NCBI GenBank assembly: GCA_963825835.1
Contig: CAWGVA010000010.1
Location: 26,990-90,989, forward strand
Origin: an uncultured Alphaproteobacteria bacterium
Lineage (GTDB): Bacteria > Pseudomonadota > Alphaproteobacteria > Rhizobiales > Methyloligellaceae
Direction: 5' to 3'
Length of the DNA: 64,000 bases
Shown: one piece after another, positions 23,179 through 35,712 of the stretch
Position numbering within the stretch: the first letter of the stretch is position 1
Layout: each line of letters starts with the position of its first letter
Program-made: the position numbers and the translations under genes
Notes under the pieces: model-generated
Database searches by the model: none
Seen by the model: only the letters and a program-made list of their open reading frames with translations
Told to the model about the DNA's origin: nothing

Positions 23179-23252
23179 TGGCTGGGGGACTTGGATTCGA
23201 ACCAAGACTGGCGGAGTCAGAGTCCGCTGTCCTACCGTTAGACGATCCCCCA
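23179..23252 (-). tRNA. tRNA-Gln (anticodon CUG), CCA encoded
   Basis: Minus strand reads TGGGGGA-TC-GTCT-AACGGTA-GGAC-A-GCGGA-CTCTGAC-TCCGC-CAGT-CTTGG-TTCGAAT-CCAAG-TCCCCCA-G-CCA. Full cloverleaf, 74 nt. Confidence 0.9.
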
Positions 23253-23323
23253 GTATTTCACATTTGGATCAACGAGATGGGTTTTCCAATCATTGACAAG
23301 TTTTCCAATCTTCCACATTTCGT
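23253..23323. repeat. AT-rich junction between tRNA-Gln and the integrase remnant, with an 11-nt direct repeat
   Basis: GTTTTCCAATC occurs at 23281-23291 and 23300-23310. Confidence 0.5.
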
Positions 23324-24339
23324 TCAGGCCCCACGTTCGCTGGACGTTCGCTCTTTTAGTCGTCGCTGCGCCGATTTTGCAAGTTTCTTCTGATCGGCAA
23401 AGCGGCTGTAGCGCATGATCATCGCTGGCGACATGCCGGTGATGCTCTCGATCTCGTGCGCGTTGCATCCGGCCTCACGCAGTTTCTCGACGCTCGACGC
23501 GCGGAGCCCGTATGTAGCCTTCCTTCCTGATCCCGCCTGCAGGCGTGCCATTCATCAGCCGCGTCCACGCAGCCTGGGAGCGGTCTGTGTTGTATGCTTC
23601 GCCCTTCGGCGTCTGCAACGAAGGGGGAGCAGCTCCAGCCCTCCAGCGCACCCACCAAATCGTCGTGAAGGGGCACCCACAACTCCTTGCCGGTCTTCTG
23701 CTGCACCACGTTGATCCCGCCGTCCTCAACGTCGCTTGGGGCCATACGCAGCACATCAGACTGTCTCTGGCCGGTGTATCGAGCCAGCAGAACAGCACGG
23801 CGCACATCCTCCCTCGCATGCTCCTCAATCAAGCTGTAGGCCCACACAGGCCACGGTCGAGCACCTTCTTCATCCGTCTCCAGCTTGGGCACATACACGC
23901 ACGGGTTCGTCTCACAGAACTCGCGCGGGATGCCCCAGTTGACCAGCGTCTTCAGGACCGCAAGAAGATGGTTCGCGGCGACCGGCGTGCTTGCCCATTT
24001 GTCGCGCAGACCGATGACGTGCTTCGGTCTGAGGTCGCTGACCAGCAGCTCTCCCCACGCCTTCGATATGATTTCGAGGTAGCGCAGGTAGTCGCGCTTC
24101 GTCGAAGCAGCTCGCTTGTCGAACTCAGGCGACACCTTGTACGCTAGGATCAGGTCGTTGAAGCTCCTGCAGGTCGAGACGTCGCCATTGAGCTGGATCT
24201 TGTAAGCAGCCCAGAACTCGACTGTGTGCGGTCCACCAGGGAGCTTTACGCTCGGCCCTGCCGACGCGTCGCGGACAAGGCCTACAACTACGACAAGCCG
24301 ATGCCCAATTGGTGGTAGTTCGCTGCCGCAGAAGCAGGA
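23324..24339 (-). pseudogene. Tyrosine recombinase (phage-type integrase), at least 2 frameshifts and no usable start
   Basis: Integrase-like sequence is spread over three minus-strand frames. These are ...LPGGPHTVEFWAAYK...VSPEFDKRAASTKRDYLRYLE..RYTGQRQSDV.., then ..TPKGEAYNTDRSQAAWTRLMNGTPAG.., then ..YGLRASSVEKLREAGCNAHEIESITGMSPAMIMRYSRF. A stop lies at 24340-24342 upstream of the N-terminal segment. Confidence 0.8.
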
Positions 24340-24394
24340 CTAGGGCCACAGACGAGGCGTCGGAACGGGGGCCGCGAGCCTATTGCCGTAGGAT

Positions 24395-24880
24395 TTAAAA
24401 CACCTGCTGCATGGGTCGAAGTTCCGGCCTTAGGTACTGAGTAAAGTTCTTGAAGTCTGCAACGAGATGGTCATACAGCGCCGTCCGATCCCGTTCTCCT
24501 ATCTTTTCCTGCGCAGTTAAGGTCCGCTGATCAGTGAGGTGTGAAATCTGCTTATTGATTTTTGCGATTAGCGCCTTTCTCTCCTCCGAGTTCGGGGGCA
24601 ACTTGTAGTCGCCCACGGTAAAGTCGCTTGCCTTGAGAGCGTGATCCCACCCAACTTCCAGGAAAAACTCGTTGAGGTTGCGCGTGGAGTGCAAAATGCC
24701 TCGATTAGTGCATTCTGAATGACCGTGTCGCCGATCCTCGCCAAAAGCCTCTTGTGAGTTTCGGCGAGCATCCAAAATTCGTAGAACAAGTAACGTAGTT
24801 GCTCCTTCTTGATGTCGTCGGGGACTGTTCACCTGCGTCTCCACATCAGGAACCCGGCTCGCGAAAGAACGCATTTGCAA
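24395..24880 (-). pseudogene. Hypothetical gene, probably frameshifted
   Basis: Protein-like sequence switches frame. MFYEFWMLAETHKRLLARIGDTVIQNALIEAF (ORF 24568..24789) continues sensibly as ..STRNLNEFFLEVGWDHALKASDF...ISHLTDQRTL... in ORF 24395..24880. Confidence 0.4.
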
Positions 24881-24895
24881 AAGGAACCGCTTTAC

Positions 24896-25687
24896 TCATC
24901 CTAGCGGCGGGCTTTGATCGGTTGCATTGCCATATTCGTGGTAGCGAGCATATTTTCTCTCGACATCGTATTTGCCAATTTCTCCGTCGCCTCGCATAAC
25001 CCAATTGTAACGATGGCAGAAACGGGTCCAGCGGTCTTTGCCCAATCCATCTTGGTAGGCAACCATCCCCCACACGTATAAAAAGACCGGGCTTTCTTCA
25101 GAGCGCACTCTTATTGGGTTTCCACTTTGCGCGTTGAGTTCTGCGACAAGCATTTTCGTACTGGTCGCCCGGGGCATGATCACTCCTGGCGGAACGACCG
25201 CGTCACCGTGGAATGCACCTATTGCGAATTCCTTCTCGGCCCTATCGGGAGATGCCTTCATGTCAAGAAACCAGCGAACGTTATGAGCTGGTAGGTGACC
25301 AGTGTTATGTACCCCAACGTGGCCCAGCACGCCGGCACCTCCGACAACCATCAGGATGCCATCGGGCTCAACGCTGATGTATGCACGCTGAGTTGCCCTG
25401 AGGAATTTGGCCTGATCGTGCGCAATGGACGCGAATGCATCCGAAGCACGGCGCAGTTTTTTGCTGAAAATAGCATACGCAATAACAAGCAGGACGAGAG
25501 CAAGGATAAGAAGAAGAACAATCAGCCCAGCCGAAACGGCTTGCACTGAGCCAGAGTGTTTGTCGAGCCATTGGGTGATGAGGGTTGTGTTGAAACTCTG
25601 GATAGACAAAAGCCCCCATAGGCCCCCAATTAAGATTGAAATCAGCCAAACTCCGAATACCCAAAGCCAGGACTTTGACATAGGCAT
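24896..25687 (-). CDS. Hypothetical membrane protein (2 N-terminal TM helices plus soluble domain)
   Basis: 263-aa ORF with natural composition in a low-GC region. TM segments WLWVFGVWLISILIGGLWGLL and AGLIVLLLILALVLLVIAYAIF. No family recognised. Confidence 0.55.
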   Translation of the reverse strand: MPMSKSWLWVFGVWLISILIGGLWGLLSIQSFNTTLITQWLDKHSGSVQAVSAGLIVLLLILALVLLVIAYAIFSKKLRRASDAFASIAHDQAKFLRATQRAYISVEPDGILMVVGGAGVLGHVGVHNTGHLPAHNVRWFLDMKASPDRAEKEFAIGAFHGDAVVPPGVIMPRATSTKMLVAELNAQSGNPIRVRSEESPVFLYVWGMVAYQDGLGKDRWTRFCHRYNWVMRGDGEIGKYDVERKYARYHEYGNATDQSPPLG

Positions 25688-26000
25688 CCTGTACTAGCGG
25701 TTTTCTAGATGGTAGCGAAGCTCGGTAGGATGTGCGCCTGAGACGGCCTTCGCATATTTTTTTGCCACGCAGGCCGAGGCGCTTATCCGGGTGAGCCCAA
25801 CAAGAACACGGATATTACCACGACGATGATACCGCCCCACACAAAAGCGGTGATCATGTCACTAACCCATTGCCAGTCGAGCTTCATGACGCCAGACAAC
25901 GCCATCGAGAAGCCGAACATGTTACTTGAATTGCCGGTGGTGAGGTAGGATGCGGTGAGACGAGAGTTAACCGCACCGTTCGGGAGGTTAAAATTGGACC

Positions 26001-26336
26001 TTATTCCGTCCGAGCGCGATCCGCGCCCCTGCCCCCGAGCGGCTCAAGGTCGCGTCGCATTGATTGCAAACCGATGTCGCCATCATGGGCAGCTTCTTCC
26101 TCGCGCTTGGCGGTGAGCGACTGCTGAGCATCTATTCGTGAGCCGAAGCGATATGGCTCGTTTGAATTCGCAGGCGCTTGAGAGAGTGAAGCCTCTAAGC
26201 CCTCTACGCTGTTTGCGAGCCTCGTCCAATCCTCGGCCATATCTAGAAATTTTTGGCGCTGTTCTCCAGGTGGAAAAGTCTCAGCCGTTTGCGTGCATTT
26301 CGATGCGTGCTCGCGGCAAGTTTTCGGATTAAGCAT
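26001..26336 (-). CDS. Hypothetical small protein
   Basis: 111-aa ORF preceded by GGGAGGAAGG SD. N-terminus MLNPKTCREHASKCTQTAETF resembles small rhizobial proteins of unknown function. Confidence 0.5.
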   Translation of the reverse strand: MLNPKTCREHASKCTQTAETFPPGEQRQKFLDMAEDWTRLANSVEGLEASLSQAPANSNEPYRFGSRIDAQQSLTAKREEEAAHDGDIGLQSMRRDLEPLGGRGADRARTE

Positions 26337-26649
26337 GGCCTTCCTCCCTATAAGGAGGACAAGGCGGCTTTCTGATGGACGGATAGGAGGAGCCGCCTTG
26401 TCCGGCGCTGGCCCGCTAGTACGAGGAGCGGTTCCACATCAGCGCGTTGGGAGGCTCGGTTCACATTTCGGCAGAGTAATGACGTAATTGCGAAAGTGTA
26501 TGGAAACGTACAATGTTTTGACTTTTGAGAACGGCTAACTTCTGCGACATGACCGATGATGAGCTAGCTGCCATCGCATCAGGCGCTAAACTCACGGTGA
26601 TCAAGTGAGTTGGCTACCTCCACGCCCCAGAGTGGATGATAGTCGAGAG

Positions 26650-26922
26650 TTATGACACGTTCCGCCCCACCGTCCCGAGCACCAACTCAAGTGGGATTAC
26701 GGTCTCGTCATTCGACGTGGGAAACCCACCTAGCACGCGCACACGATAGGCATCGCTGGCGTCACCGTACTTGTCCTTTATGTCTTCGATGTGCCCCTGA
26801 GCCCTCGGGACATCGAGGCAGTTGACGTGCATCGTGTGCCAACGGCGCCTCAGGCTATGATGCGCAAAAGTAAGGGTGGCCGGGTTTCTCGTGAGGCCAT
26901 AAGAATCCGTCTGAGCGCTCAA
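26650..26922 (-). pseudogene. Phage terminase large-subunit-like fragment
   Basis: The 90-aa ORF contains ...KDKYGDASDAYRVRVLGGFPTSNDETVIPLELV..., resembling the segment after the ATPase domain of TerL proteins. Far too short to be functional. Confidence 0.35.
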
Positions 26923-27255
26923 GCTTATGGGGTCTAGGCTGCGTCGCTCCCCCTACAAGCGACACCCATGCTCGGGCTCATGGTGGTGCTCGCCGCAGGC
27001 GTGCTGAGCGGCCTTGAGCCCGGCATGCATGCCCACCCAGCTGCCACCGTCGCGAGCGCTCCGTTAACCATGCCTTAACCTAGTTGCACGCTGCGCGCCA
27101 AGTTTATGGTAAATTGCTTATTACTGATGGTGAGTGCGCTGCGAGGAGTGCCCCCCCGTTTCCTTTCAGCCCGGCAAGCAGCTATGCCGGCACTCATCAG
27201 CAGCTGATGGCGGCCTATCCCTCGGCCCCCCAAGCCGCAAGCCGCTAAAAAGCTT

Positions 27256-27290
27256 GGGCCGGAGCTCAACCCTCCGGCCCCCTCTTTTTT
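27256..27290 (+). terminator. Orphan intrinsic terminator
   Basis: GGGCCGGAG-ctcaacc-CTCCGGCCC then CCTCTTTTTT. No credible plus-strand CDS upstream. Confidence 0.6.
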
Positions 27291-27625
27291 GGGCACGCAA
27301 GCGTGCGGCCTCGGCTTTACCCACTTTGCCGCCCAACCCCCCGAGTCGAACGGACTAGTGAAGCCCGACGCACGTGGAGTGACGCCAATTGTTCCAAGAT
27401 CACCAACGGCAAGCGGGGTCTTGGGGAGCGCAGACCGAAGCCACAAAAAGAAGCCTCGGAGGCTAATGGCACCCCGAGGCTTCTAAACTCGTTACGCGAA
27501 ACTTGGGACCGGCAGTTCGCAGGAAGTTAGGCTACCGAGTCCGCGTACGTATCAATAACCGATGCGTCTTCCCTTAGTTCCAGGGCGACGCCAGGAGCAT
27601 TCGAGCACATGACTTTACGGCCAGT

Positions 27626-27688
27626 GGGGGTGGGGTGTCCGGGTGTGCCCGTGGATTAGGATCCATAGCCTGCCCCCAATGCGTGACC
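27626..27688 (+). repeat. Island hairpin element, copy A
   Basis: GGGGGTGGGGTGTCCGGGTGTGCCC-GTGGATTAGGATCCATAGCCT-GCCCCCAATGCGTGACC. About 105 nt upstream of ORF 27792. Confidence 0.7.
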
Positions 27689-27791
27689 TACAGGCCCCCG
27701 GGGAGCTAGCCGCGGCTATAAATCATCTGTTCACCCTTCCTCAACCATATCGCGGTGTGATCAACGTGCAGCAACCGAATAACCCACTGCC

Positions 27792-28610
27792 ATGTCCGAG
27801 AAGCGATTTCTCTTATTCTTTGGCGCGCCTGCAATCAGCGTCATCTTGATCTGCGCGACCCTGTTTCTTCTGCCGGCCTCATCAGGGGATTCTCCAAAAA
27901 GCGAGGTCGAGCCGCCTGAACTGACAGCGGCGAACTCAGCACAGCTTTCGATCCATGCAAAATCGGTCAGCACCATTCGTGGCGGAGCGGACCTGAAAAC
28001 TCCCACAGCACTCCCCTCGTCAGAGTCCAGAGAGCCGGATTACGTCGCGTCTATTTTGGAACAATCACAAAGCCGGGAAGAACCCGCCAACGAGGCGAGT
28101 ACGCCCACACTATCGCTGGCGGGGACCGACCCAGCTTCGTCAAAAGACGCCTCGTCGCTCCGCGCGGCAGCCAGTGAACCGAAGGTAGTCGCTCCCCCTA
28201 AACGCCAGGAAACCGCTGCCTTAGAGTCCCACGACAAACCGTCCTGGAAAGCTATGGCGCTTGCCTCGAACGAAAAGCAGCCATCGCCGTCACTCTTGAA
28301 AGCTACGACCCCGGGAGAGAATGTCGTCACCTATGGAGCAAAGGTTAGGGCGTTCCTTGCGCGCCAACCCAGAGCTGTGGGGCCACCCGGCACCGCAACG
28401 GTAACTTTCGCCATTAGTGCACGCGGCACGCTTCGGTACGCGCGAATCGAACATTCAAGCGACAGTGCTGCGCTCGACGAAATGGCCCTTGCGACTGTGC
28501 AAAATGCAGCGCCGTTTCCACCGCCCCCGAAAACCCTGAATGACGAAGCCTTGTCTTACTCGATTCAAATTGGTTTTCGAGACCCGGACGCTCCGCGGAC
28601 ACAAAATTGA
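27792..28610 (+). CDS. TonB C-terminal domain protein
   Basis: N-terminal TM (FLLFFGAPAISVILICATLFLL) and a Ser/Pro/Ala-rich linker. C-terminal GTATVTFAISARGTLRYARIEHSSDSAALDEMALATVQNAAPFPPPP matches the TonB_C pattern. Confidence 0.65.
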   Translation: MSEKRFLLFFGAPAISVILICATLFLLPASSGDSPKSEVEPPELTAANSAQLSIHAKSVSTIRGGADLKTPTALPSSESREPDYVASILEQSQSREEPANEASTPTLSLAGTDPASSKDASSLRAAASEPKVVAPPKRQETAALESHDKPSWKAMALASNEKQPSPSLLKATTPGENVVTYGAKVRAFLARQPRAVGPPGTATVTFAISARGTLRYARIEHSSDSAALDEMALATVQNAAPFPPPPKTLNDEALSYSIQIGFRDPDAPRTQN

Positions 28611-28927
28611 GCCTCCCGCGCCTTTGGCGGACACTGCGGGTGCAATAGGCTCAGTCGTCGCCCCACTTCGGACGGGGACGGACAAAAGCTTGAGGCGGCC
28701 TTGCGAGGCCGCGATGGCGGCGATCCGCCTAATGTAACTTGGATATGGCGCCGACTGATCTACCATCCGCGCGACTGGCAAATTGAGGAGGCAACCGGCA
28801 CAGGGGCCAACGTTCCTTCCGGTAGCGGGGGCTTCATGAACTTATAATGAGAAGTTCATGTTACCCGATATTGTTCAGGTTCGCTGGCACTCCATCTATC
28901 GCCCGCCAAGATTTGGAGGAAGCGAAG

Positions 28928-29155
28928 ATGGGTACTCTGGTCTTTGTCTGTCCCAACTCAGGCCGCGAAGTTTTCACCGGACTTGAAATTGATTCAGCGA
29001 GCTTTCAGGGCCTGCCCAAGGTGCTCGCAGAGATAAACTGTTCTGACTGCTGTGAAACCCATAACCTGTTCGAGGTTCGATCGCGACTGGTCGCGACTCC
29101 GCCGGAGGGGTCCAACCACGCCCTGCCAGGAACACCCGATCCTATCGCGGATTGA
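28928..29155 (+). CDS. Small Cys-containing hypothetical protein (zinc-ribbon-like CPxxG...CSDCC)
   Basis: ATG preceded by GGAGGAAGCGAAG. 75 aa. Confidence 0.5.
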   Translation: MGTLVFVCPNSGREVFTGLEIDSASFQGLPKVLAEINCSDCCETHNLFEVRSRLVATPPEGSNHALPGTPDPIAD

Positions 29156-29159
29156 ATCA

Positions 29160-29492
29160 ATGTCGGCAGGCCAGATTGGCGAACAACATCCCGCGTTTGT
29201 GGCAGAACCCAATCTTATGGCGATCCTCAACGGGTTGATTGTAGCGGTGTTCCTGATCTTATTGGTGGCTTCGGTAGCGGTGGTAGGATCGATGATCGCC
29301 TTAACATTATTCGATCTGGCCCTCAGCAGGAAACGGCCATCGGGCACTACCGCTGTGATAGACAGCGATCCTGAAATTACTAATCGCTCCAATCTTGAAA
29401 TGGCATTTAGCAATTGGCGGCGTGAAAGGGGCGGCGAAGCAGCGAGCGGGAACAACCAAGTCTTAGACGGTCGGCCCCGCCCGCTCGGTTAA
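29160..29492 (+). CDS. Hypothetical single-TM protein
   Basis: Starts 4 nt after the previous stop. TM segment ILNGLIVAVFLILLVASVAVVGSMIALTLF. Confidence 0.4.
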   Translation: MSAGQIGEQHPAFVAEPNLMAILNGLIVAVFLILLVASVAVVGSMIALTLFDLALSRKRPSGTTAVIDSDPEITNRSNLEMAFSNWRRERGGEAASGNNQVLDGRPRPLG

Positions 29493-29786
29493 AAATGCAT
29501 GGGCTGGGGACAAAGAAAGCCCGACCTGGACACAGGCCGGGCTGAACTAGACGGGTCGGCTGAGTTGGGTATGCTCGCCGACTAAGAATTGAAATGTCGC
29601 TGCCAACCTGCGGTTCCCGACCCTAGTTAGAGAATGCGCGTTTCGTTCGATTTCGATGCCAACAAGTCACAGTAACGAAAATTGGGGTTTTCTATTCCCT
29701 CAAAAGCCGCATTGCGGGCGATTCGGACGATGACGACTGCCAATCTGTTTACGTCGCGCGGCTGCGCCTAGCGGTGCAACAACTCA

Positions 29787-29863
29787 GTTGAACGGGAGGG
29801 GTGAGGGTGCCGGGTGTATACCGTGGATTAGGATCCATAGCCTCCCCCGGTAAGGCAGGTACC
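29787..29863 (+). repeat. Island hairpin element, copy B
   Basis: GTTGAAC-GGGAGGGGTGAGGGTGCCGGGTGTATACC-GTGGATTAGGATCCATAGCCT-CCCCCGGTAAGGCAGGTACC. Lies between convergent gene ends. Confidence 0.7.
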
Positions 29864-29910
29864 TTTCAGCCTCCTGAGCGGCCCGATGATCCCTTGGCCG
29901 AGAACGCCGC

Positions 29911-30147
29911 CTAGTGTGCCGGGGAGAGCGGCAGACTCTCGAGGGCAAGTCTCCGAAGCTGAGCCGGATCAGTTACACCAGCAGCAGCAAGCTCGACGAG
30001 CTTCCGACTGATCTCGATGCTAAGGCCCTTGGCTCTATCCGCATCAAGAAGGGGATCATGCGCTCGCATTACCAACCAGATAGATTCAAAAGCTTGCGCC
30101 AACTCAGTAACCAGTTTCGGATCATCGAAAAGATTATGAGGGCTCAT
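29911..30147 (-). CDS. Hypothetical small protein
   Basis: 78-aa ORF with strong SD (GGAGGGAAGAA-ATG) and helical, natural composition. Confidence 0.55.
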   Translation of the reverse strand: MSPHNLFDDPKLVTELAQAFESIWLVMRAHDPLLDADRAKGLSIEISRKLVELAAAGVTDPAQLRRLALESLPLSPAH

Positions 30148-30205
30148 TTCTTCCCTCCACGAAGGTAGTCACCAAAAAGGAAGCCCTACCGGGCGGTCAT
30201 TGGCG

Positions 30206-30586
30206 TCAGTGAACTGCTTCGGAGACCGCGTGAGCCAATGTGTCGCGATACACCGGCTTAGAGAGCACAGGCGCTCCGGGAACCACGTCGTGAATGCGTT
30301 CTAGCGTGCTGTCGTCACTGTGAGCAGTCACAAAAACGATGGGAACGTCACACACTTCCTTGAGCCATCGCGCGGTTTCAATTCCGGTACGAGCTCCGCC
30401 GAGATATACATCTATTACTGCCACGTCCGGCGGATTGCTCATCGCCAACTCCTTAGCGTCCTTTTCGTTTGATGCCACATTGCAGACGTCGAAGCCCAAC
30501 TCATGCATCGAAGCTTCCAAATCGAATGCAATCAGAAACTCATCATCAACGATTAGCGCCCGACGCGAGGACAGATCTTGTGCCAT
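30206..30586 (-). CDS. Single-domain response regulator (CheY-like receiver)
   Basis: LIVDDE acidic pocket, phospho-acceptor context VAVIDVYL, FVTAH and LSKP conserved positions. No output domain and no kinase nearby. Confidence 0.85.
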   Translation of the reverse strand: MAQDLSSRRALIVDDEFLIAFDLEASMHELGFDVCNVASNEKDAKELAMSNPPDVAVIDVYLGGARTGIETARWLKEVCDVPIVFVTAHSDDSTLERIHDVVPGAPVLSKPVYRDTLAHAVSEAVH

Positions 30587-30702
30587 TGGTCACCTGGATT
30601 TTTGGCGTGCCAAACTTCATCAACGCGCTCGGGCAACATTGGTGCCCGCAGCCACAAGATTTTCCACAGACAAGTCGGATGGAAGGCCCTCTCGTTGGGG
30701 CA

Positions 30703-30900
30703 TCAGAGCGCCCCGAATAAATTGAATAGATCAGTCATCGAGGCATAATGAGCCGTTTCTGGCTTCGCTGCCTGTACCATTGGGCCGCTGACCTGAGTCA
30801 GCGAGGTCCCTAGCGAGAACAGTGTTACAAGTCCGGCGAGAACCCACGCCACGAGTGGTAAGCGCGTCTTCACCGGAAGAGTGCCTACGATCTTGAACAT
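30703..30900 (-). CDS. Small hypothetical membrane protein
   Basis: 65 aa with one TM (LPLVAWVLAGLVTLFSLG). Upstream of, and co-oriented with, the receiver gene. Confidence 0.4.
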   Translation of the reverse strand: MFKIVGTLPVKTRLPLVAWVLAGLVTLFSLGTSLTQVSGPMVQAAKPETAHYASMTDLFNLFGAL

Positions 30901-30955
30901 GGCAATTCTCCCTCGATGTGCCCGCGTGTCCCTCCCGGTTACACCCTCAGGCCGC

Positions 30956-31017
30956 GGGGGGGCTGTCGGGGGTGTACGGTGGATTAGGATCCATAGCCTC
31001 CCCCGGTAAGACAGGTA
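30956..31017 (+). repeat. Island hairpin element, copy C
   Basis: GGGGGGGCTGTCGGGGGTGTACG-GTGGATTAGGATCCATAGCCT-CCCCCGGTAAGACAGGT. Confidence 0.7.
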
Positions 31018-31159
31018 TATCGTTTAGGCGAGGGACCAAACCTGCAAGCTAATCTGCGACTTTGCGAGGGTGCCACACGGACGAGCGGATCTTTATCGGA
31101 AGTCTATATCGAGACACAGCCCACAGCATCCCTCATACGCGATCGGTGCGTCTAAAGTA

Positions 31160-31234
31160 TTGAACGGAGGGGAGGTGGGGGTGCCGGGCCATACCGTGGA
31201 ATAGAAGCTATAACCCTTCCCCAATCGGACACCC
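31160..31234 (+). repeat. Island hairpin element, copy D
   Basis: TTGAAC-GGAGGGGAGGTGGGGGTGCCGGGCCATACCGTGGAATAGAAGCTATAACCCTTCCCCAATCGGACACC. About 80 nt upstream of the PAP2 ORF. Confidence 0.65.
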
Positions 31235-31314
31235 GTCACTGTGATGCAATAACCGACGACCAATCTCGACGATAAAGCCAAAGCTTTTTGTGGTGCCCGG
31301 ATGGCAGCGGAAGC

Positions 31315-32700
31315 ATGGGTATGAGTTCTAAGCAGGCATTTGCTTTAAAACGATTTGTTATGGCGGTCTTCCCCGCTGCCTTTATCGCTGCTGCTGCACT
31401 CGCAGCACCTGGCGAAGCGACGCTGACCGTGACCAACCTGAATGCGCTGCACGGCCTCGTTTCGCTGACCACGCTGGGCAATACCGATGCCGGCAGGGCG
31501 GCGCTGGTAAGCAACTTCACCATCACGGGTGAAATCCAGAGTGGAGTGGCCCACCAGCCGCTCCTGCTTTCCTTCCCCGATCAGCAGCAGCAGGCGCTCC
31601 GCGACGCGCTCATCACCGGGGTTGCCTATGAACTGGCCGACGGACTCGGTAACAAGCTCGGCGACGCCTATCAGACGACGATCAGCGCCGACTGCAAAAC
31701 CTCAATCTTCACAAGCAAGTTGCCGGCGGTCGCTCGCCTGATCGGATTTGCCAACGCGACATCACATGCCGATTCAGATGCGAGCAAGTACTTCTTCGCC
31801 AACGGAACGCGTGACGGCGGGAAGCCGGTTTCGGGAGAGGTCAAATTGATCCTGACCGAGGTCAGCGGCACCACGGACGTCTTTGGCAGGGCCTATGGGC
31901 CGCCAGTGGGTAGCGATAAGGCCAACCCTTTCGGCAATTCCCGGCCATTCCAGACCGAGCCGCACTTCACGAAGTACGCGGGCAAGGACTTCTGCGGCTC
32001 CGAGACCACGAACACCGACAATCTCAAGCATTTGGCGGCGAATCCCGCCTATCCCAGCGGTCATACTGTCTATGGTTACATGGAGTCGGTTCTGTTGGCT
32101 TTGCTGGTGCCGGAGCGGTATCAGCAGATGGTCACCCGCGCCGCCGAATACGGCAATGATCGCATCGTGCTCGGATCTCATTATGCGATGGACGTCTTGG
32201 CTGGCCGGACCCTGGCCTTATATGACCTCGCTCAGCTGCTGGCCAACAAACCCGGTTATGTCGGCGTGAAGCGGGAAGACGTGGAGATTGGCGATTTCCC
32301 GAAGGCACTAGTGGATGCCCGCGCCGAACTGGCTGCTGCTCTCGAGAAGGCTTGCGGTGGCAAGATCGCCGACTGCGCCGGGCAGGATCAGAGTCGCTTT
32401 GCCGATCCGGCGATGAGCAAGGCTTTCTACGAGGCCACCCAGACCTATGGTCTGCCTGTGGTATTCGCGAACAACGCGCAGGCCCCCCACGACGTCGCCA
32501 AATTCGCGCCGGAAGCGGGCTATCTGCTGACCGCTGCTTTCCCCGACCTCACGCTCGCGCAGGCCGATGCTATCCTGACGCTAACCCAGGGGCCAGGTGG
32601 CGGCTTTCTCGACGACGGCTCAGCCTTTGGCGTTTATTCGCGCCTCGACCTTTACAAGGCGGCGGCGCGCGCTGCGGCATTCTTGAGAGACCGAGAATAA
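31315..32700 (+). CDS. PAP2-superfamily phosphatase / vanadium-haloperoxidase-related exported protein
   Basis: Signal peptide (FVMAVFPAAFIAAAALAAPGEA). Motifs ...FGNSRPF, YPSGHTVYGY and DRIVLGSHYAMDVLAGR (R-x5-H-x3-D). The ORF is open from 31288. Confidence 0.7.
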   Translation: MGMSSKQAFALKRFVMAVFPAAFIAAAALAAPGEATLTVTNLNALHGLVSLTTLGNTDAGRAALVSNFTITGEIQSGVAHQPLLLSFPDQQQQALRDALITGVAYELADGLGNKLGDAYQTTISADCKTSIFTSKLPAVARLIGFANATSHADSDASKYFFANGTRDGGKPVSGEVKLILTEVSGTTDVFGRAYGPPVGSDKANPFGNSRPFQTEPHFTKYAGKDFCGSETTNTDNLKHLAANPAYPSGHTVYGYMESVLLALLVPERYQQMVTRAAEYGNDRIVLGSHYAMDVLAGRTLALYDLAQLLANKPGYVGVKREDVEIGDFPKALVDARAELAAALEKACGGKIADCAGQDQSRFADPAMSKAFYEATQTYGLPVVFANNAQAPHDVAKFAPEAGYLLTAAFPDLTLAQADAILTLTQGPGGGFLDDGSAFGVYSRLDLYKAAARAAAFLRDRE

Positions 32701-32784
32701 CACGCCGTGGGAGGAAGTGGGCCTAACCCCCGGCGGACACCTCGCCGCCCATGCTTTCGGCTCCTCGTCTAGAGCAACGAATGA

Positions 32785-32852
32785 GTTGAACGGGGGTGAG
32801 GTGGCTGGGGGCGTACGGTGGAATAGAAACGAAACCCCGCCTCCGATTAAGG
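32785..32852 (+). repeat. Island hairpin element, copy E1 (more diverged)
   Basis: GTTGAAC-GGGGGTGAGGTGGCTGGGGGCGTACGGTGGAATAGAAACGAAACCCCGCCTCCGATTAAGGG. Confidence 0.55.
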
Positions 32853-32924
32853 GTCGAAGGGGGTGGCGGTGCCGGGGGTACACCATAAAAAGGTACCATC
32901 AGCCCACCCCCCATGCGTGGGTCC
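32853..32924 (+). repeat. Island hairpin element, copy E2 (tandem with E1)
   Basis: GTCGAA-GGGGGTGGCGGTGCCGGGGGTACACCATAAAAAGGTACCATCAGCCCACCCCCCATGCGTGGGTCC. Tail ATGCGTG is shared with copy A. Confidence 0.6.
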
Positions 32925-32959
32925 TGCCGCACCGCCAAAGCCAAGTGCCAGTTCATAAG

Positions 32960-33739
32960 TTACCGACCTGTGCCCTTCTCAAATCGGCGATCATTTTCGG
33001 AAGCAACGGCCAACTGCGCTGGCTTGAGCGTTTCGCGCGGCTTAGTGGCGAATGCAAACAAAGCGTTGACGAGAAACGAGGCCACAATGCTGCACAAAGC
33101 CATGATCACATAATGATGGCCGGAGAAGCCTTGTCGCGCGATATTCGTTAGCTTGATTGCTCCGGGAATAGACTCACCTCGTGAGCTCAAGGCACTCAAC
33201 GAAGCCTGCCAAATCCAATCGGCAAAGCGCAGAAGCGCGGCGTAGGTCTCGGGCACGAGGGCGTTGAATGTAAAGAGTGCCACTGCCAGCACCACCGTCG
33301 CCGGCACGCTAACCAGGGCTATGGCAATCCGTTGAAGCCCGCTGCGCGTTCCTCCGAGGACCCAGTTTAAGGGGATGCCGACAAAAATGGTGGCGATCAC
33401 GATCGCTGGGATGGAAAGCACGACGTGAGTCATGTTTACGCGTTCGCGCAGGTGATTAACCGCTATTTGTCCCCAATAGGAACCGGAGACTAACGAATCC
33501 AACCAGTTTGTTATGGAGCGCCCGATATCAAAAGCCAAGGTGATGACTGGCTCTAACTCTCGATCATAAACGACAGAGAGGACCATCATCCCGAGCATCA
33601 GTGCATAGCTTATGCCGCCAATGCCGATTGAGACGATGAGGCGTCGGACCCACGCGAGCATTGCATTCCCCCAACCGCTGGCTCTAACGCCCTCGGTCAA
33701 ATCCCATTCTATTATTGTTCGGCTCTCAACAAGCTGCAC
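32960..33739 (-). CDS. Hypothetical polytopic membrane protein
   Basis: 259-aa ORF with about 6 hydrophobic helices. No family recognised. Confidence 0.55.
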   Translation of the reverse strand: MQLVESRTIIEWDLTEGVRASGWGNAMLAWVRRLIVSIGIGGISYALMLGMMVLSVVYDRELEPVITLAFDIGRSITNWLDSLVSGSYWGQIAVNHLRERVNMTHVVLSIPAIVIATIFVGIPLNWVLGGTRSGLQRIAIALVSVPATVVLAVALFTFNALVPETYAALLRFADWIWQASLSALSSRGESIPGAIKLTNIARQGFSGHHYVIMALCSIVASFLVNALFAFATKPRETLKPAQLAVASENDRRFEKGTGR

Positions 33740-33827
33740 TGCACGGGCCGCTTGGAACTTTTAGACCCAGCGACAGTTCACGGCTCAAATTCGACGAAAC
33801 AGCCACTGAAAAAAGCGGGTCGTGATT

Positions 33828-33971
33828 ATGCCTCTAAAGAAAGGTTCGTCACACAAGACGATTAGCTCAAACATCAAAACTGAGATGAAGGCAGGCAAGC
33901 CACAGAAGCAGGCGGTCGCCATCGCTTTAAAAAAGGCCGGCAAGAGCAAAAAGTCCAAACGGTCGAAGTGA
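33828..33971 (+). CDS. Small basic protein (DUF6496-like), below the ORF-track length cutoff
   Basis: Read directly as [47 protein letters not shown]. The [12 protein letters not shown] core is typical of that small-protein family. Confidence 0.5.
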
Positions 33972-34066
33972 TCAGCACCGCGACCGACTAGAGTTTGTGC
34001 GACTGACTAGACGTACTCGCATTGCCAGTGGGCGCGAGATGACACCTGGTTCTCCATGGGTCGCCA

Positions 34067-34303
34067 TCACCGTTTTGTGTGCCACCGATCGTACCGTGCT
34101 TGCAGACGCGGTGCGATCAGCCAGGCTATAGGCGCGGCTAGAATAAGGCTCGCTACGACCACGACGGGAATCCAAATATACGCGTTGGTGCTGAGTGCGG
34201 GCACATTCAACACCGTAATTATTGCCGCGCCGAAAATGACTGCATTCGTCATTGAGTAAATCAGAACAGCGATTCTCAGTCGGTTTCTCATTCCGGCTTG
34301 CAC
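34067..34303 (-). CDS. Small hypothetical membrane protein (2 TM)
   Basis: 78 aa and hydrophobic. In tandem with 34310..34498. Confidence 0.4.
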   Translation of the reverse strand: MQAGMRNRLRIAVLIYSMTNAVIFGAAIITVLNVPALSTNAYIWIPVVVVASLILAAPIAWLIAPRLQARYDRWHTKR

Positions 34304-34309
34304 TACTCT

Positions 34310-34498
34310 TCACCCGCGCGCTCGGAGCGGCCAAATCTCGCTTACGACTATCGCGAGCAAAGATGCCGCTATTGAAAGCCACGCCAATTCAATCCAACGC
34401 ACGTGACCCGTAATCATTGCGAATACGGCTCCGATGGTCGCTATGAGGAGTGCCAAAGCCGCAATCGCGCACAGTATGAAAATGAGAGATCTGATCAA
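34310..34498 (-). CDS. Small hypothetical membrane protein (2 TM)
   Basis: 62 aa and hydrophobic. Ends 6 nt before the next ORF start. Confidence 0.4.
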   Translation of the reverse strand: MIRSLIFILCAIAALALLIATIGAVFAMITGHVRWIELAWLSIAASLLAIVVSEIWPLRARG

Positions 34499-35188
34499 CT
34501 CTAACTCCGCAGCGTCGTATTCACCAACAGCAGGGGTGCGGTTTGGGGGGCCAACAGCAGCGAACTAAAACACCCGATCCTATCGCGGTTTGAATCGTCT
34601 TGGCGGTGCACAGGATAGCCAAACGCCGGTTAGCACGGGGACTCTTACCGCCGCCTTGTTGGTTCTCTGTCTGTCCAGCCTCGTCGGCGTTTCTCGTCTG
34701 CAAGCCAACCGAGTTCCCGAGCTTTCTCAGTTGCTCGCCTTAGCCATGAGAGTGAACTCTTGGGAAGTGACCCGAGCCTTATGATCATCCTGGCCAAAGC
34801 CACTGAGGAAACATAGGCCACGCGGTATCAAACCAAATCTTGTTCGTAGGCCGTGCCGGGCATCTTCACTATTATCCTACGAAGGGTCTCCTGTACCTCG
34901 ATGTGAAGATCGGGAGCCTTGGACATGGCTGGCACTTTCATGGCCCCCAATTTCAACGCTGGGAGCGGTGCGTCGTCGGGGCCGCCGACGCTATTTCAAA
35001 CGGTCTGTCAGCATCGTAGTTCCGCGTCAGCACCGACCGAAGCCGACGGGCGCAGACCGAATAGACCGCCCAGATTTACGATAGCAGGGGAACGCGGAGA
35101 CGATCACCGCCGTTGTGGTTCTAGCAGCCGCAAGAAGTCGGCTGGGGTACTGGGGATTGTGACGCTCGGGTTAAACGGAGGGTGTAAC

Positions 35189-35296
35189 ATGGCCATCGCC
35201 CCGACAAACAAGCGCGAGGCAGATGAAATGGCACTCAAGCTGTCCTGCTTGCTCGCGTTCATCCTGGTTGGCTTGATCACGGCTGGGGTGCTTTAG
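35189..35296 (+). CDS. Possible 35-aa membrane peptide
   Basis: GGAGGGTGTAAC-ATG and a C-terminal TM (LSCLLAFILVGLITAGVL). Followed by a 10-bp GC hairpin at 35309-35339. Confidence 0.3.
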   Translation: MAIAPTNKREADEMALKLSCLLAFILVGLITAGVL

Positions 35297-35636
35297 ACTC
35301 AAACAGAAAGCCCCGGGGCACTGCATGTCCCCCGGGGCTCTGATTAGGAGTGCGGGTTACCGTGGTCTCCGCCGTTCACCGAAGCGAACTAGAGCGGCCA
35401 CCCCGCCTCACGGTAGATAGCACTGTTCGGTAAGTATGGCTGTGCCCCTGGCGCCACTTCTTCGATCAAAAAACGCGCCGAAGCCGAACGCTTGCGTCAT
35501 GGTCGCCGTCTTTAACGCTAGGCCCGTGTCTGGGTGGGGCCGCCTCAGGCGTGCGAAAATGCCCGTCCGTCCTTACTATGTCGTTACTGGCTTTGGTCTG
35601 CCAACTCGCGATTTAAGCCTAACTCGTTGTTTTTAT

Positions 35637-35712
35637 TGGCGCGCCTGGAAGGGCTCGAACCTCCAACCTACAGATTCGAAGTCTGGTGCTCTATCCGTTG
35701 AGCTACAGGCGC
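35637..35712 (-). tRNA. tRNA-Arg, anticodon read as UCG; atypical (C-U mismatch at the top of the anticodon stem)
   Basis: Minus strand reads GCGCCTG-TA-GCTC-AACGGATA-GAGC-A-CCAGA-CTTCGAA-TCTGT-AGGTT-GGAGG-TTCGAGC-CCTTC-CAGGCGC-G-CCA. 76 nt. Confidence 0.75.

Follow-up and report, generated by a model that had tools for sequence, protein, structure and literature searches.

A new co-oriented mosaic DNA repeat at the breakpoints of shuffled accessory-gene modules in an uncultured soil alphaproteobacterium

The analysis of the window (the whole 64,000-nt stretch of DNA studied here) revealed six copies of an element of approximately 70-125 nt. It represents a new mosaic DNA repeat, non-coding and specific to one lineage, in the flexible genome of an uncultured soil alphaproteobacterium. 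Neighbouring copies always have the same orientation, are built of exchangeable parts and are placed at the breakpoints of shuffled accessory-gene modules, and good evidence for an RNA role is lacking. We put at roughly 45% the probability that this is a NIME/BIME-like repeat whose portable homology would allow accessory genes to be exchanged like cassettes.

Results

Six copies of the element in an accessory island

The six copies are located in a low-GC island (GC 0.54-0.58 versus 0.61-0.67 outside), which is bounded by tRNA-Gln (23179-23252, minus strand) and tRNA-Arg (35637-35712, minus strand) and contains a degraded tyrosine-integrase ORF at 23419-24135. A profile made from the six copies recovered all of them from the window with E-values of 1e-14 to 5e-19, on the plus strand and where the preliminary description had placed them (Table 1). 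The next match had an E-value of 2.5, confirming that the remaining 58 kb of the window contain no copy. The identical six matches, and no other at E<1, were obtained with a richer profile of 40 sequences. A suggested seventh relic at 35346-35372 proved unsupported: no profile match was found there even in a 200-nt search space, and the region shows no remaining alignment with the syntenic copy of L059.

Table 1. Elements and associated features of the window
Feature	Coordinates	Strand	Profile match	Description
Copy A	27626..27688	+	27617-27686	76.2 bits
Copy B, full-length form	29758..29863	+	29788-29859	85.9 bits
Copy C	30937..31017	+	30950-31015	Alternative left module GGTTACACCCTCAGGCC, truncated
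Copy D	31094..31234	+	31160-31229	Divergent core variant GTGGAATAGAAGCTATAACC; degenerate long left module
Copy E1	32769..32852	+	32787-32850	Left-extension remnant CTAGAGCAACGAATGAGTTGAAC; core variant GTGGAATAGAAACGAAACCC
Copy E2	32853..32924	+	32851-32921	Core variant CACCATAAAAAGGTACCATCAGCC; ATGCGTGGGTCC tail
Low-GC accessory island	23260..35636	.		tRNA-Gln to tRNA-Arg; contains all six copies
Response-regulator gene module	29905..30936	-		78-aa ORF, response regulator, 65-aa ORF; bounded by B and C
orfX N-terminal fragment	28686..28790	+		KLEAALRGRDGGDPP..WQIEE
orfX C-terminal remnant	29864..29914	+		About 16-17 codons, FQPPERPDDPLAENAA-stop; abuts B tail

Read from left to right, the unit may start with a left extension (about 35 nt, with GTTGAAC at its end), followed by the G-rich arm, the conserved core TGCCGGG-GTATACC-GTGGATTAGGATCCATAGCC (about 40 nt), the C-rich arm and a tail (about 15 nt) that finishes in ..GGTMCC. 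Two short palindromes present in the core, GGGTATACCC and TGGAT-N4-ATCCA, look like protein-binding sites. A, B and C have the 20-mer GTGGATTAGGATCCATAGCC in exact form (0.00 matches in shuffles). As described earlier, ATGCGTG is common to the tails of A and E2 and GGTAAGRCAGGT to those of B and C, and the gene context of the copies is as reported. The core positions also stand, but the units are longer on the left: the AGTTGAAC lead is present as claimed and is the end of the conserved extension of about 35 nt, ..GCGGCTGCGCCTAGCTGTGCAACGAnTGAGTTGAAC. The starts of B, C, D and E1 (the last one approximate) were corrected accordingly in Table 1.

Copy A, without the left extension, consists of the G arm, the core GTGGATTAGGATCCATAGCC, the C arm and the ATGCGTGACC tail and lies 104 nt upstream of a TonB-like ORF (27792-28610). 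In copy B the left extension GCGGCTGCGCCTAGCGGTGCAACAACTCAGTTGAAC (29758-29793) is followed by the G arm, core, C arm and GGTAAGGCAGGTACC tail. At the left edge of C, the homology of the response-regulator module reaches its right-hand limit. The left module of D begins with TTATCGGAAG, half of a 10-bp palindrome that is present upstream of other copies, and its core unit (31159-31234) is found 86 nt upstream of a PAP2 gene (31321-32700). E1 and E2 are arranged head to tail; the E2 subtype adjoins the response-regulator module in L156 and L159 and was found in L058 as well.

Left modules and tails are interchangeable, including the 35-nt left extension and three tail types. Composite tandem forms exist, some of them having two cores between a single G arm and a single C arm. 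The right end is sharp, with pairwise homology stopping by about +80 unless the entire flank is shared, and the left end is ragged, with homology stopping at many positions. Adjacent copies are on the same strand in all 25 of 25 pairs (16 independent multi-copy loci), despite flanking genes being transcribed in both directions.

Distribution of the family

A scan of 185,579 species genomes found true relatives in only two alphaproteobacterial MAGs, on 5 and 4 contigs, and the exact 20-mer is carried by forty soil metagenome contigs. Profile searches yielded 80 copies (65 distinct), reduced to 57 when near-identical copies were dropped; the approximately 60 non-redundant copies originate from the two uncultured alphaproteobacterial MAGs and soil metagenomes. 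No family matches were detected in Rfam, plasmids, phages or viral contigs, and the core pattern was not found in species genomes of Rhizobium, Sinorhizobium and Agrobacterium. The earlier statement that the elements are confined to the island is correct within the window, but relatives carry copies on several contigs.

Gene modules flanking the elements

Copies of the response-regulator module (1032 bp) are present in at least four further contexts, among them three unrelated ones, L156, L159 and L162, where identity is 97.8-98.4%, and L154, where the match starts from 29867 at 93% identity. At least four different left flanks precede the B-type copies joined to this module, with switches at -38, at -2 or within the G arm; L144 and L127 have a common left flank and diverge within the G arm. 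These scattered breakpoints were judged by eye in a handful of recombinant pairs. The TonB module begins 32 nt past A.

A multi-copy hypothetical gene, designated orfX, is split in the window, where its middle part is replaced by 28791-29863, comprising two small genes and copy B. The element L144_9253 and copy B interrupt orfX at different codons. The gene adjoins elements in the window, L031, L058 (twice), L125, L137, L144, L154, L163 and L165, and has their orientation in each independent context observed. Its protein product of 80-105 aa falls into 275 clusters at 90% identity, every one hypothetical and lacking a domain. orfX recurs as a pair with ORF84, and in L163, L165, L144 and L125 the order of orfX, small ORFs and an element 400-700 nt downstream is repeated. 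No likeness of either protein to any recombinase or transposase was detected; the structure model obtained in this protein analysis was unusable (pLDDT 50).

Discussion

Recombination between co-oriented copies

Since the copies have the same orientation and are located at sites of swapped gene blocks, they resemble DNA recombination joints and not small RNAs. They could serve as stretches of portable homology joining accessory-gene modules: a module between two co-oriented copies may be deleted, or swapped for incoming DNA, linear or circular, with copies in the same orientation. Such deletion or replacement would explain why arrays remain co-oriented, why chimeric elements and empty tandem pairs (C-D and E1-E2) occur and why one module is found in many contexts. 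We infer that crossing-over proceeds via general homologous recombination, with no dedicated enzyme, and that the elements promote exchange and do not merely mark its sites. The NIME arrays of Neisseria have been proposed to promote exchange of flanking genes (PMC1797815).

However, homologous recombination leaves unexplained the sharp right end and the strongly conserved core with its two palindromes. Several module boundaries are 30-60 nt away from the element and not within it, and the right edge of the response-regulator module in four contexts is a terminator hairpin and not an element. The structure-fitted alignment (see below) also suggests that some arm complementarity is kept, for which a passive repeat would have no need. 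Alternatively, the direction of replication could be the cause of co-orientation.

Alternative explanations

The preliminary description considered the elements as small structured RNAs or cis-acting leaders transcribed from the plus strand, which is the least likely rival and in our opinion very improbable. A and D do lie 86-104 nt upstream of ORFs, and one arm pair is G-U in 22 of the 57 copies, which favours the plus strand; however, all 22 trace to a single substitution common to a subfamily. Rfam searches gave nothing even at E<=10, the folding energies of individual copies matched those of dinucleotide-shuffled sequences on either strand (z between -1.6 and +1.0), and RNAalifold applied to 40 non-redundant copies found no consensus pair on the plus strand and a trivial five pairs (-1.4 kcal/mol) on the minus strand. 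In a structure-blind alignment, pairing of the proposed arms was seen in 76.8% of cells compared with 75.4% in column shuffles, and therefore the pairing mostly reflects G-rich columns opposite C-rich columns. In a structure-fitted alignment, built on the earlier proposed structure and leaning toward it by construction, pairing reached 82.1% versus 76.8% in shuffles (0 of 500 shuffles attained it), although even there 27 of the 57 copies have a broken middle pair. Covariation of the arms, suggested earlier, appears in the structure-fitted alignment only. The inner hairpin is lost in the core variants of D, E1 and E2, and no promoter or terminator pattern was detected on the elements. Their position relative to genes is inconsistent (divergent and convergent spacers, with some copies inserted inside ORFs), and RNA genes do not typically have a ragged left end or mosaic modules.

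Two DNA-based alternatives take account of other features. It is conceivable, if doubtful, that the copies serve a dedicated, strand-specific DNA enzyme whose gene lies elsewhere in the genome, being either integron-like recombination sites that mark gene cassettes or hairpin ends or sites of single-strand transposition (IS200/IS605, PATE or REP-RAYT type). An enzyme recognising the folded G-arm/C-arm hairpin and core on one strand would fix orientation, and the strict co-orientation (25/25 pairs), sharp right end and conserved palindrome-bearing core are consistent with it. So are the imperfect dyad symmetry of each copy, the excess complementarity and double changes in the structure-fitted alignment, the head-to-tail composites, the modules with a copy at one edge recurring in many contexts, and the generic tyrosine and serine recombinases at the island edges. 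Nevertheless, the attC signature RYYYAAC...GTTRRRY is missing (5 occurrences per strand in 64 kb, touching only one element), the search for an integron integrase was negative, and the element-bearing loci share no recurrent recombinase or transposase. Crossover points are spread over the element and not fixed, no clean empty site or conserved target sequence was found, and sequence is conserved above structure, the reverse of attC. It is also unlikely that the element is the conserved terminus (attachment site or end sequence) of a small mobile unit carrying the ORF84-orfX pair, most copies being solo remnants after insertion beside earlier copies and subsequent decay. The constant adjacency and co-orientation of orfX, its great abundance for an unknown protein, its pairing with ORF84 and the gene order repeated in four loci agree with this; against it, neither protein resembles a recombinase or transposase, many copies have no orfX nearby, and elements cut orfX on either side at varied codons, so that it appears equally victim and partner. 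Moreover, the pair has a toxin-antitoxin-like operon layout, which would explain its abundance in islands with no link to the repeat.

Comparison with known repeats

NIMEs, in which dRS3 repeats flank RS elements, are likewise non-coding mosaic repeats forming arrays beside variable genes; the make-up of the arrays varies between strains, and where genes were exchanged, the recombination end points lie within or close to the arrays. There is no sequence relation (dRS3 is ATTCCC-N8-GGGAAT), and a 20-bp inverted repeat alternates there with many RS families, whereas the present family has a single unit, approximately 70-125 nt long, whose ends can be exchanged. Strict co-orientation has not been described for NIMEs, and NIMEs have not been observed outside Neisseria (PMC1797815).

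The attC sites of integrons, among them those of chromosomal arrays such as Vibrio VCRs and of CALINs (attC clusters without an integrase), are also co-oriented imperfect palindromes, of 60-130 nt, located between small, mostly hypothetical genes, with one gene module present in different arrays. In sedentary chromosomal integrons attC repeats are homogeneous within one lineage. The elements described here differ in the absence of R''/R' boxes and IntI, in genes running in both directions, multi-gene modules, irregular spacing and scattered crossover points, and in that sequence and not structure is conserved. They are not canonical attC sites. Integrons are reported absent from Alphaproteobacteria (PMC9668308).

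REP/BIME sequences of enterobacteria and pseudomonads and rhizobial RIMEs are similarly short, GC-rich, imperfectly palindromic, mosaic, intergenic, lineage-specific and non-coding. REPs are 20-40 nt long, are scattered over the whole genome in both orientations, frequently as inverted pairs, and accompany a RAYT transposase; the present copies are longer, concentrated in accessory regions and strictly co-oriented, and for this last reason canonical REP identity was rejected. Canonical MITEs were rejected owing to strict co-orientation and the lack of terminal inverted repeats (beyond the low-complexity arms) and target-site duplications; the ragged left end, the lack of clean empty sites and the absence of a transposase from the element-bearing loci also distinguish the elements from MITEs and from IS200/IS605-derived PATEs. 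The other earlier proposal, a new REP/MITE-like hairpin repeat spread inside one island, is closer than the RNA one because the family is indeed a new repeat; it did not, however, spread inside one island, and it departs from REPs and MITEs in the features given above. Both MITEs and PATEs are nevertheless small, non-autonomous, hairpin-bearing and multi-copy, and single-strand transposons can have a strand bias, which is reminiscent of the co-oriented elements.

Six co-oriented copies in a low-GC island

A profile was built from the six aligned copies of the element (A, B, C, D, E1 and E2, all within 27626-32924) and run over the 64-kb window. It gave six matches, all on the + strand, with E values from 5e-19 to 2e-14; the best remaining match had E=2.5. 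A later profile of 40 sequences returned the same six copies. The 20-mer GTGGATTAGGATCCATAGCC is present without any change in A, B and C, with a chance expectation of none. The six copies named in the preliminary description were thus borne out by the alignment and by both profiles. This was not so for a seventh, relic copy suggested at 35346-35372, where the profile finds nothing even with a 200-nt search space and no alignment was obtained to the syntenic copy in L059 (L numbers denote other loci, on contigs of metagenome-assembled genomes (MAGs) or of soil metagenomes).

All six copies are located in a stretch at ~24-36 kb with a GC content of 0.54-0.58, compared with 0.61-0.67 in the rest of the window. 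The neighbouring genes for a TonB-like protein, a response regulator and a PAP2 phosphatase are as first described, and the other neighbours of the elements are several small ORFs without a known domain. Tandem accretion at a tRNA attachment site was considered and rejected, as no repeat of 13 nt or more of either tRNA was found elsewhere in the island.

Features of the window and of two related loci
Feature	Sequence	Position	Strand	Remark
tRNA-Gln(ctg)	window	23179-23252	-	one border of low-GC stretch
Phage-integrase ORF	window	23419-24135		weak match, probably degraded
TonB C-terminal-domain protein	window	27792-28610		
orfX N-terminal fragment	window	28686-28790		
orfX C-terminal remnant	window	29864-29914		
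Response regulator	window	30206-30586	-	
PAP2 phosphatase	window	31321-32700		
tRNA-Arg(tcg)	window	35637-35712	-	other border of low-GC stretch
ORF84-orfX pair	L163	9745-10318		
ORF84-orfX pair	L165	9832-10231		

Structure of the element

Comparison of many copies revealed that the unit originally outlined is real but not whole, being the right-hand part of a longer element. The commonest full form consists of ..AGCGGCTGCGCCTAGCTGTGCAACGAnTGAGTTGAAC, a G arm (GGAGGGGTGGGGG), TGCCGGGGTATACC, GTGGATTAGGATCCATAGCC, a C arm (TCCCCC) and a tail, and the unit is 70-125 nt long. The tails ATGCGTGGGTCC, GGTAAGGCAGGTACC and GTAACGTAGGTA are variants of one segment. In C and a number of relatives the GTTGAAC extension gives way to another left module, GCGTTAGGTGGTTACACCCTCAGGCC. 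The cores of D, E1 and E2 differ by substitutions that grade into one another, and these variants do not retain the TGGAT/ATCCA hairpin. Elements with two cores between a single G arm and C arm, or elements arranged head-to-tail, were found in L031, L059, L002 and L156; in the window E1-E2 is arranged head-to-tail.

The boundaries were read from a histogram of the end positions of pairwise homology. The right boundary is sharp, with no homology past about +80 unless the whole flank is shared. On the left the end points are ragged and peak at +10, -30 and elsewhere. The two ends of the element (GCGGCTGCGCC.. and ..GGTMCC) do not form an inverted repeat. A protein-coding repeat was rejected because indels between copies, read by eye, break the frames on both strands. 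A G-quadruplex motif in the G arm was also rejected: four G3 tracts are present in only 5 copies of a set of 57, which combines the collected copies with loci from protein look-ups after removal of near-identical copies.

Distribution and orientation

A degenerate core pattern was scanned over one genome per species (185,579 species). Nearly all of the 112 loci obtained are chance matches, and among them convincing full-length profile matches were found in two uncultured alphaproteobacterial MAGs only, MFD04967.bin.3.101 (family on five contigs) and MFD05513.bin.1.41 (four contigs); matches in L052 and L065 are marginal (E about 4-6e-4). The exact 20-mer is present on 40 metagenome contigs from soil or rhizosphere, and protein look-ups located the window's own locus in at least ten ENA soil assemblies at 99.5-99.8% identity. 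Together, the window, the two MAGs and the metagenome contigs yielded 80 copies, 65 of them distinct. A phage or plasmid origin was rejected since neither the core nor orfX, a multi-copy hypothetical gene near the elements, has a match in IMG/VR viral contigs, and copy B has none in PLSDB plasmids or INPHARED phages. The repeat family is lineage-specific and new among intergenic mosaic repeats, lying outside Rfam and the plasmid, phage and viral collections searched.

A covariance model was constructed from the six window copies and the structure initially proposed for them. A search with it over 35 sources gave 58 hits and 16 independent multi-copy loci, and wherever a locus holds several copies, they share one strand. 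Adjacent pairs are co-oriented in 25 cases out of 25 (P about 3e-8 under random, independent orientations), and no oppositely oriented copy was detected in any locus searched. Genes flanking the elements run both ways: of the spacers that hold the window copies, two are divergent (A; C and D) and two convergent (B; E1 and E2). This indicates that the orientation of the elements is not tied to transcription.

Assessment of an RNA function

A known RNA family was rejected, as the Rfam search suggested at the outset gave none: at gathering thresholds the two tRNAs are the only matches in the window, and at E<=10 the region 27300-33300 gives three chance-level hits of 17-19 bits. Every copy folds no better than its own dinucleotide shuffles on both strands (z near 0), whereas against mononucleotide shuffles the mean z is -1.6 for the + strand and -2.3 for the - strand. 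The hairpin potential therefore reflects G runs facing C runs. For 40 non-redundant copies, RNAalifold leaves the + strand without any pair and predicts five, at -1.4 kcal/mol, on the - strand.

The outer arms had been described as mutually complementary within each copy. On the structure-blind alignment of the 40 copies, the proposed structure pairs 76.8% of cells, compared with 75.4% after column shuffling (30 of 500 shuffles reach the observed value), and the covariation score is 0.131 versus 0.109 (18 of 500). The 58 hits were also aligned to the covariance model, which leans towards that structure. In this structure-fitted alignment 82.1% of cells are paired versus 76.8%, both-side changes occur in 28 cells versus 12.3 and the score is 0.138 versus 0.078, none of these being reached in 500 shuffles; the middle pair is broken in 27 of 57 copies and the inner-hairpin pairs in 8-18 of 57. 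We read the excess as some retained arm complementarity, which would suit a hairpin of DNA or of RNA equally and is well short of demonstrating a structured RNA.

No sigma-70-like promoter or intrinsic-terminator pattern falls on any copy, and identity of the elements as promoters or terminators was rejected on this basis. The copies are found in divergent spacers, in convergent spacers and inside a disrupted ORF, with no fixed position relative to genes. Overall, an RNA function of the elements appears very improbable.

Gene modules and their breakpoints

An identical copy of the window's response-regulator protein is also encoded in four unrelated contexts elsewhere. The regulator, a 78-aa ORF and a 65-aa ORF lie together in a 1032-bp block (29905-30936), which L156, L159 and L162 carry at 97.8-98.4% identity; in L154 homology to this regulator module starts from 29867, at 93%. 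In the window, element B forms the left limit of the block and the left edge of C its right limit. To the left of the module there is an E2-type element in L156 and L159 and an element with an internal deletion in L162; L154 has no element there, and an intact orfX reaches the module. The right end in all four loci is a terminator hairpin, not an element. The unit made of B and the regulator module is joined to at least three further left flanks on other contigs; the switch occurs either where the left extension begins, or immediately before AGTTGAA, or within the G arm. Loci L144_10000 and L127_864 have a common left flank and diverge within the G arm. The TonB module (27720-28625), which in the window starts 32 nt after A, is 91% identical in L144.

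PAP2 was rejected as a mobile module: its exact protein is present only at this locus and one variant (L174) diverges from the window 60 nt beyond E2. The single candidate for an empty site, and the sole presence/absence case (L144_9253 versus window 28625-28692), proved to be a replacement and not a clean insertion. There is therefore nothing to indicate insertion with target duplication, whether by cut-and-paste or copy-and-paste, and empty-site support for transposition was discarded.

The orfX product is a hypothetical protein of 80-105 aa that forms 275 clusters at 90% identity in soil metagenomes, with no name or domain and nothing in Pfam or PHROGs; its AlphaFold model (pLDDT 50) is too poor for use. 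Together with its upstream partner ORF84 it constitutes a translationally coupled pair encoding small helical proteins of no known domain, a layout which resembles a toxin-antitoxin or cassette-stabilising operon. The pair adjoins elements on the same strand in all ten occurrences, at nine loci. The elements could have originated as the terminus of an orfX-carrying unit, which we consider rather improbable; elements cut orfX at varied codons, and the two orfX pieces in the window are separated by two small genes and B.

Comparison with known systems and possible mechanism

The best fit to the data is a lineage-specific mosaic repeat of the flexible genome, acting as a DNA-level joint between accessory-gene modules. 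Chimeric elements, spread crossover points, empty tandem pairs, recurrence of the same modules in many contexts and strict local co-orientation are all expected if co-oriented copies recombine repeatedly, be it inside one genome or with incoming DNA bearing copies in the same orientation. Homologous exchange is the likelier mechanism, a tentative choice to which we give a probability of about 0.45; it is preferred because the breakpoints are scattered and no enzyme is linked. The same two observations count against a dedicated strand-specific enzyme acting on the elements, which is doubtful yet a serious rival because the right end is sharp, the palindromic core is conserved and there is a hint of retained dyad symmetry. 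Island-edge integrases and resolvases (tyrosine and serine) were rejected as a linked recombinase, as they do not recur in other loci.

It is unlikely, but conceivable, that the elements are recombination sites of an integron-like cassette system, of a new kind unrelated to attC and IntI. A strand-specific enzyme of this soil alphaproteobacterial lineage would then recognise the hairpin into which G arm, core and C arm fold, and would integrate or remove modules of several genes in a single orientation; the abundant ORF84-orfX pair might be a partner of this enzyme. The elements resemble integron attC arrays and CALINs in their strict co-orientation (25/25 pairs), their position at module joints and the presence of modules common to several contexts, but here genes run both ways and many modules are multi-gene. 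A regular-expression search of both strands for attC boxes (RYYYAAC...GTTRRRY) gave 5 matches on each strand over the 64 kb. A single one of them, at 32721-32791, touches an element, via the GTTGAAC of E1, and its boxes are not complementary. Canonical attC was rejected since paired R''/R' boxes do not mark the elements. No integron integrase was found, NCBIfam giving weak generic tyrosine-recombinase matches (30.9 bits versus a cut-off of 220). An integron integrase is not required for a CALIN.

REP and REPIN sequences are short palindromes dispersed over the whole genome in both orientations, often as inverted pairs, whereas the present elements are 70-125 nt long and occur in one orientation, without the scatter of opposite copies typical of that class. 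Strict co-orientation is not a property of REP or MITE families. MITEs were rejected, as the element ends are not inverted repeats and the sole presence/absence case is a replacement. No RAYT (IS200/IS605-like TnpA) was detected in the scanned proteins and the gene calls of fetched loci, which cover the island part of the window and a minority of the metagenome contigs. A RIME assignment, judged by presence of the core pattern, is not supported, as the species scan found this pattern in no Rhizobium, Sinorhizobium or Agrobacterium genome. Of the systems described so far, the neisserial NIME array comes closest; it is defined by dRS3 repeats (ATTCCC-N8-GGGAAT) flanking RS elements, and both homologous recombination and a specific recombinase have been proposed for it (PMC1797815). 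NIMEs belong to Neisseria and carry dRS3, whereas our elements have an alphaproteobacterial host and no dRS3 motif in the element sequences read.

If the repeat promotes or marks module exchange, it would make the flexible gene pool of an abundant, uncultured group of soil Alphaproteobacteria accessible through sequence. Possible cassette exchange is of interest here because the integron, the classic platform for cassettes, is reportedly missing from Alphaproteobacteria (PMC9668308). Strict co-orientation is an unusual property that is directly testable on complete genomes. Annotation of the family would avoid false small-RNA or riboswitch predictions in these genomes and help to set island and module limits in metagenome assemblies.

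Other repeats and small ORFs

A second repeat family of these flexible regions, made up of GGCGTCGGCTTCGGTCGGCGC and a T-rich run after it, resembles an intrinsic terminator: its predicted 9-bp stem is nearly invariant and carries a UUCG tetraloop. It is present at 35030-35047 (-) in the window and in at least 12 copies on both strands of L156 (4827-18083), terminates the regulator module in L154, L156, L159 and L162, and is located immediately left of about a dozen element copies in a constant relative orientation. The perfect 10-bp palindrome CTTCCGATAA-N6-TTATCGGAAG lies 0-90 nt upstream of several long copies (L137, L031, L148, L002, L120 and L125); in L002 and L031 it is inside a separate ~195-nt module of 87% identity, and the window has a half site only (31094-31103). 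A perfect 9-bp GC-rich hairpin at 27256-27280, with T-runs bordering it on each strand, resembles a bidirectional terminator; the block containing it (27061-27290) is 88% identical to L058, where it is also element-adjacent.

The 20-kb loci L154, L156 and L159 look like hypervariable accessory regions. They contain long runs of 50-150-aa ORFs, none with a Pfam hit, and one edge carries a serine recombinase (L154 20020-20381; L156 19105-19779). They have many modules in common with the window's island yet 0-3 repeat copies. In L153 the small gene at 29160-29450 is annotated with 96 aa and in the other assemblies with 110 aa; a 164-nt insertion/deletion polymorphism lies inside it (29433/29434 versus L153 11150-11313). 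A 35-aa hydrophobic ORF, MAIAPTNKREADEMALKLSCLLAFILVGLITAGVL, with a good ribosome-binding site is located at 35189-35296 (+), and its product resembles a type I toxin-like small membrane peptide. Together with ~160 nt upstream (conserved from 35030) it has 92% nucleotide identity to L059 2711-2977, where elements come after it. A 35-aa gene is called at the same position in L153-L161, and one is called in L159.
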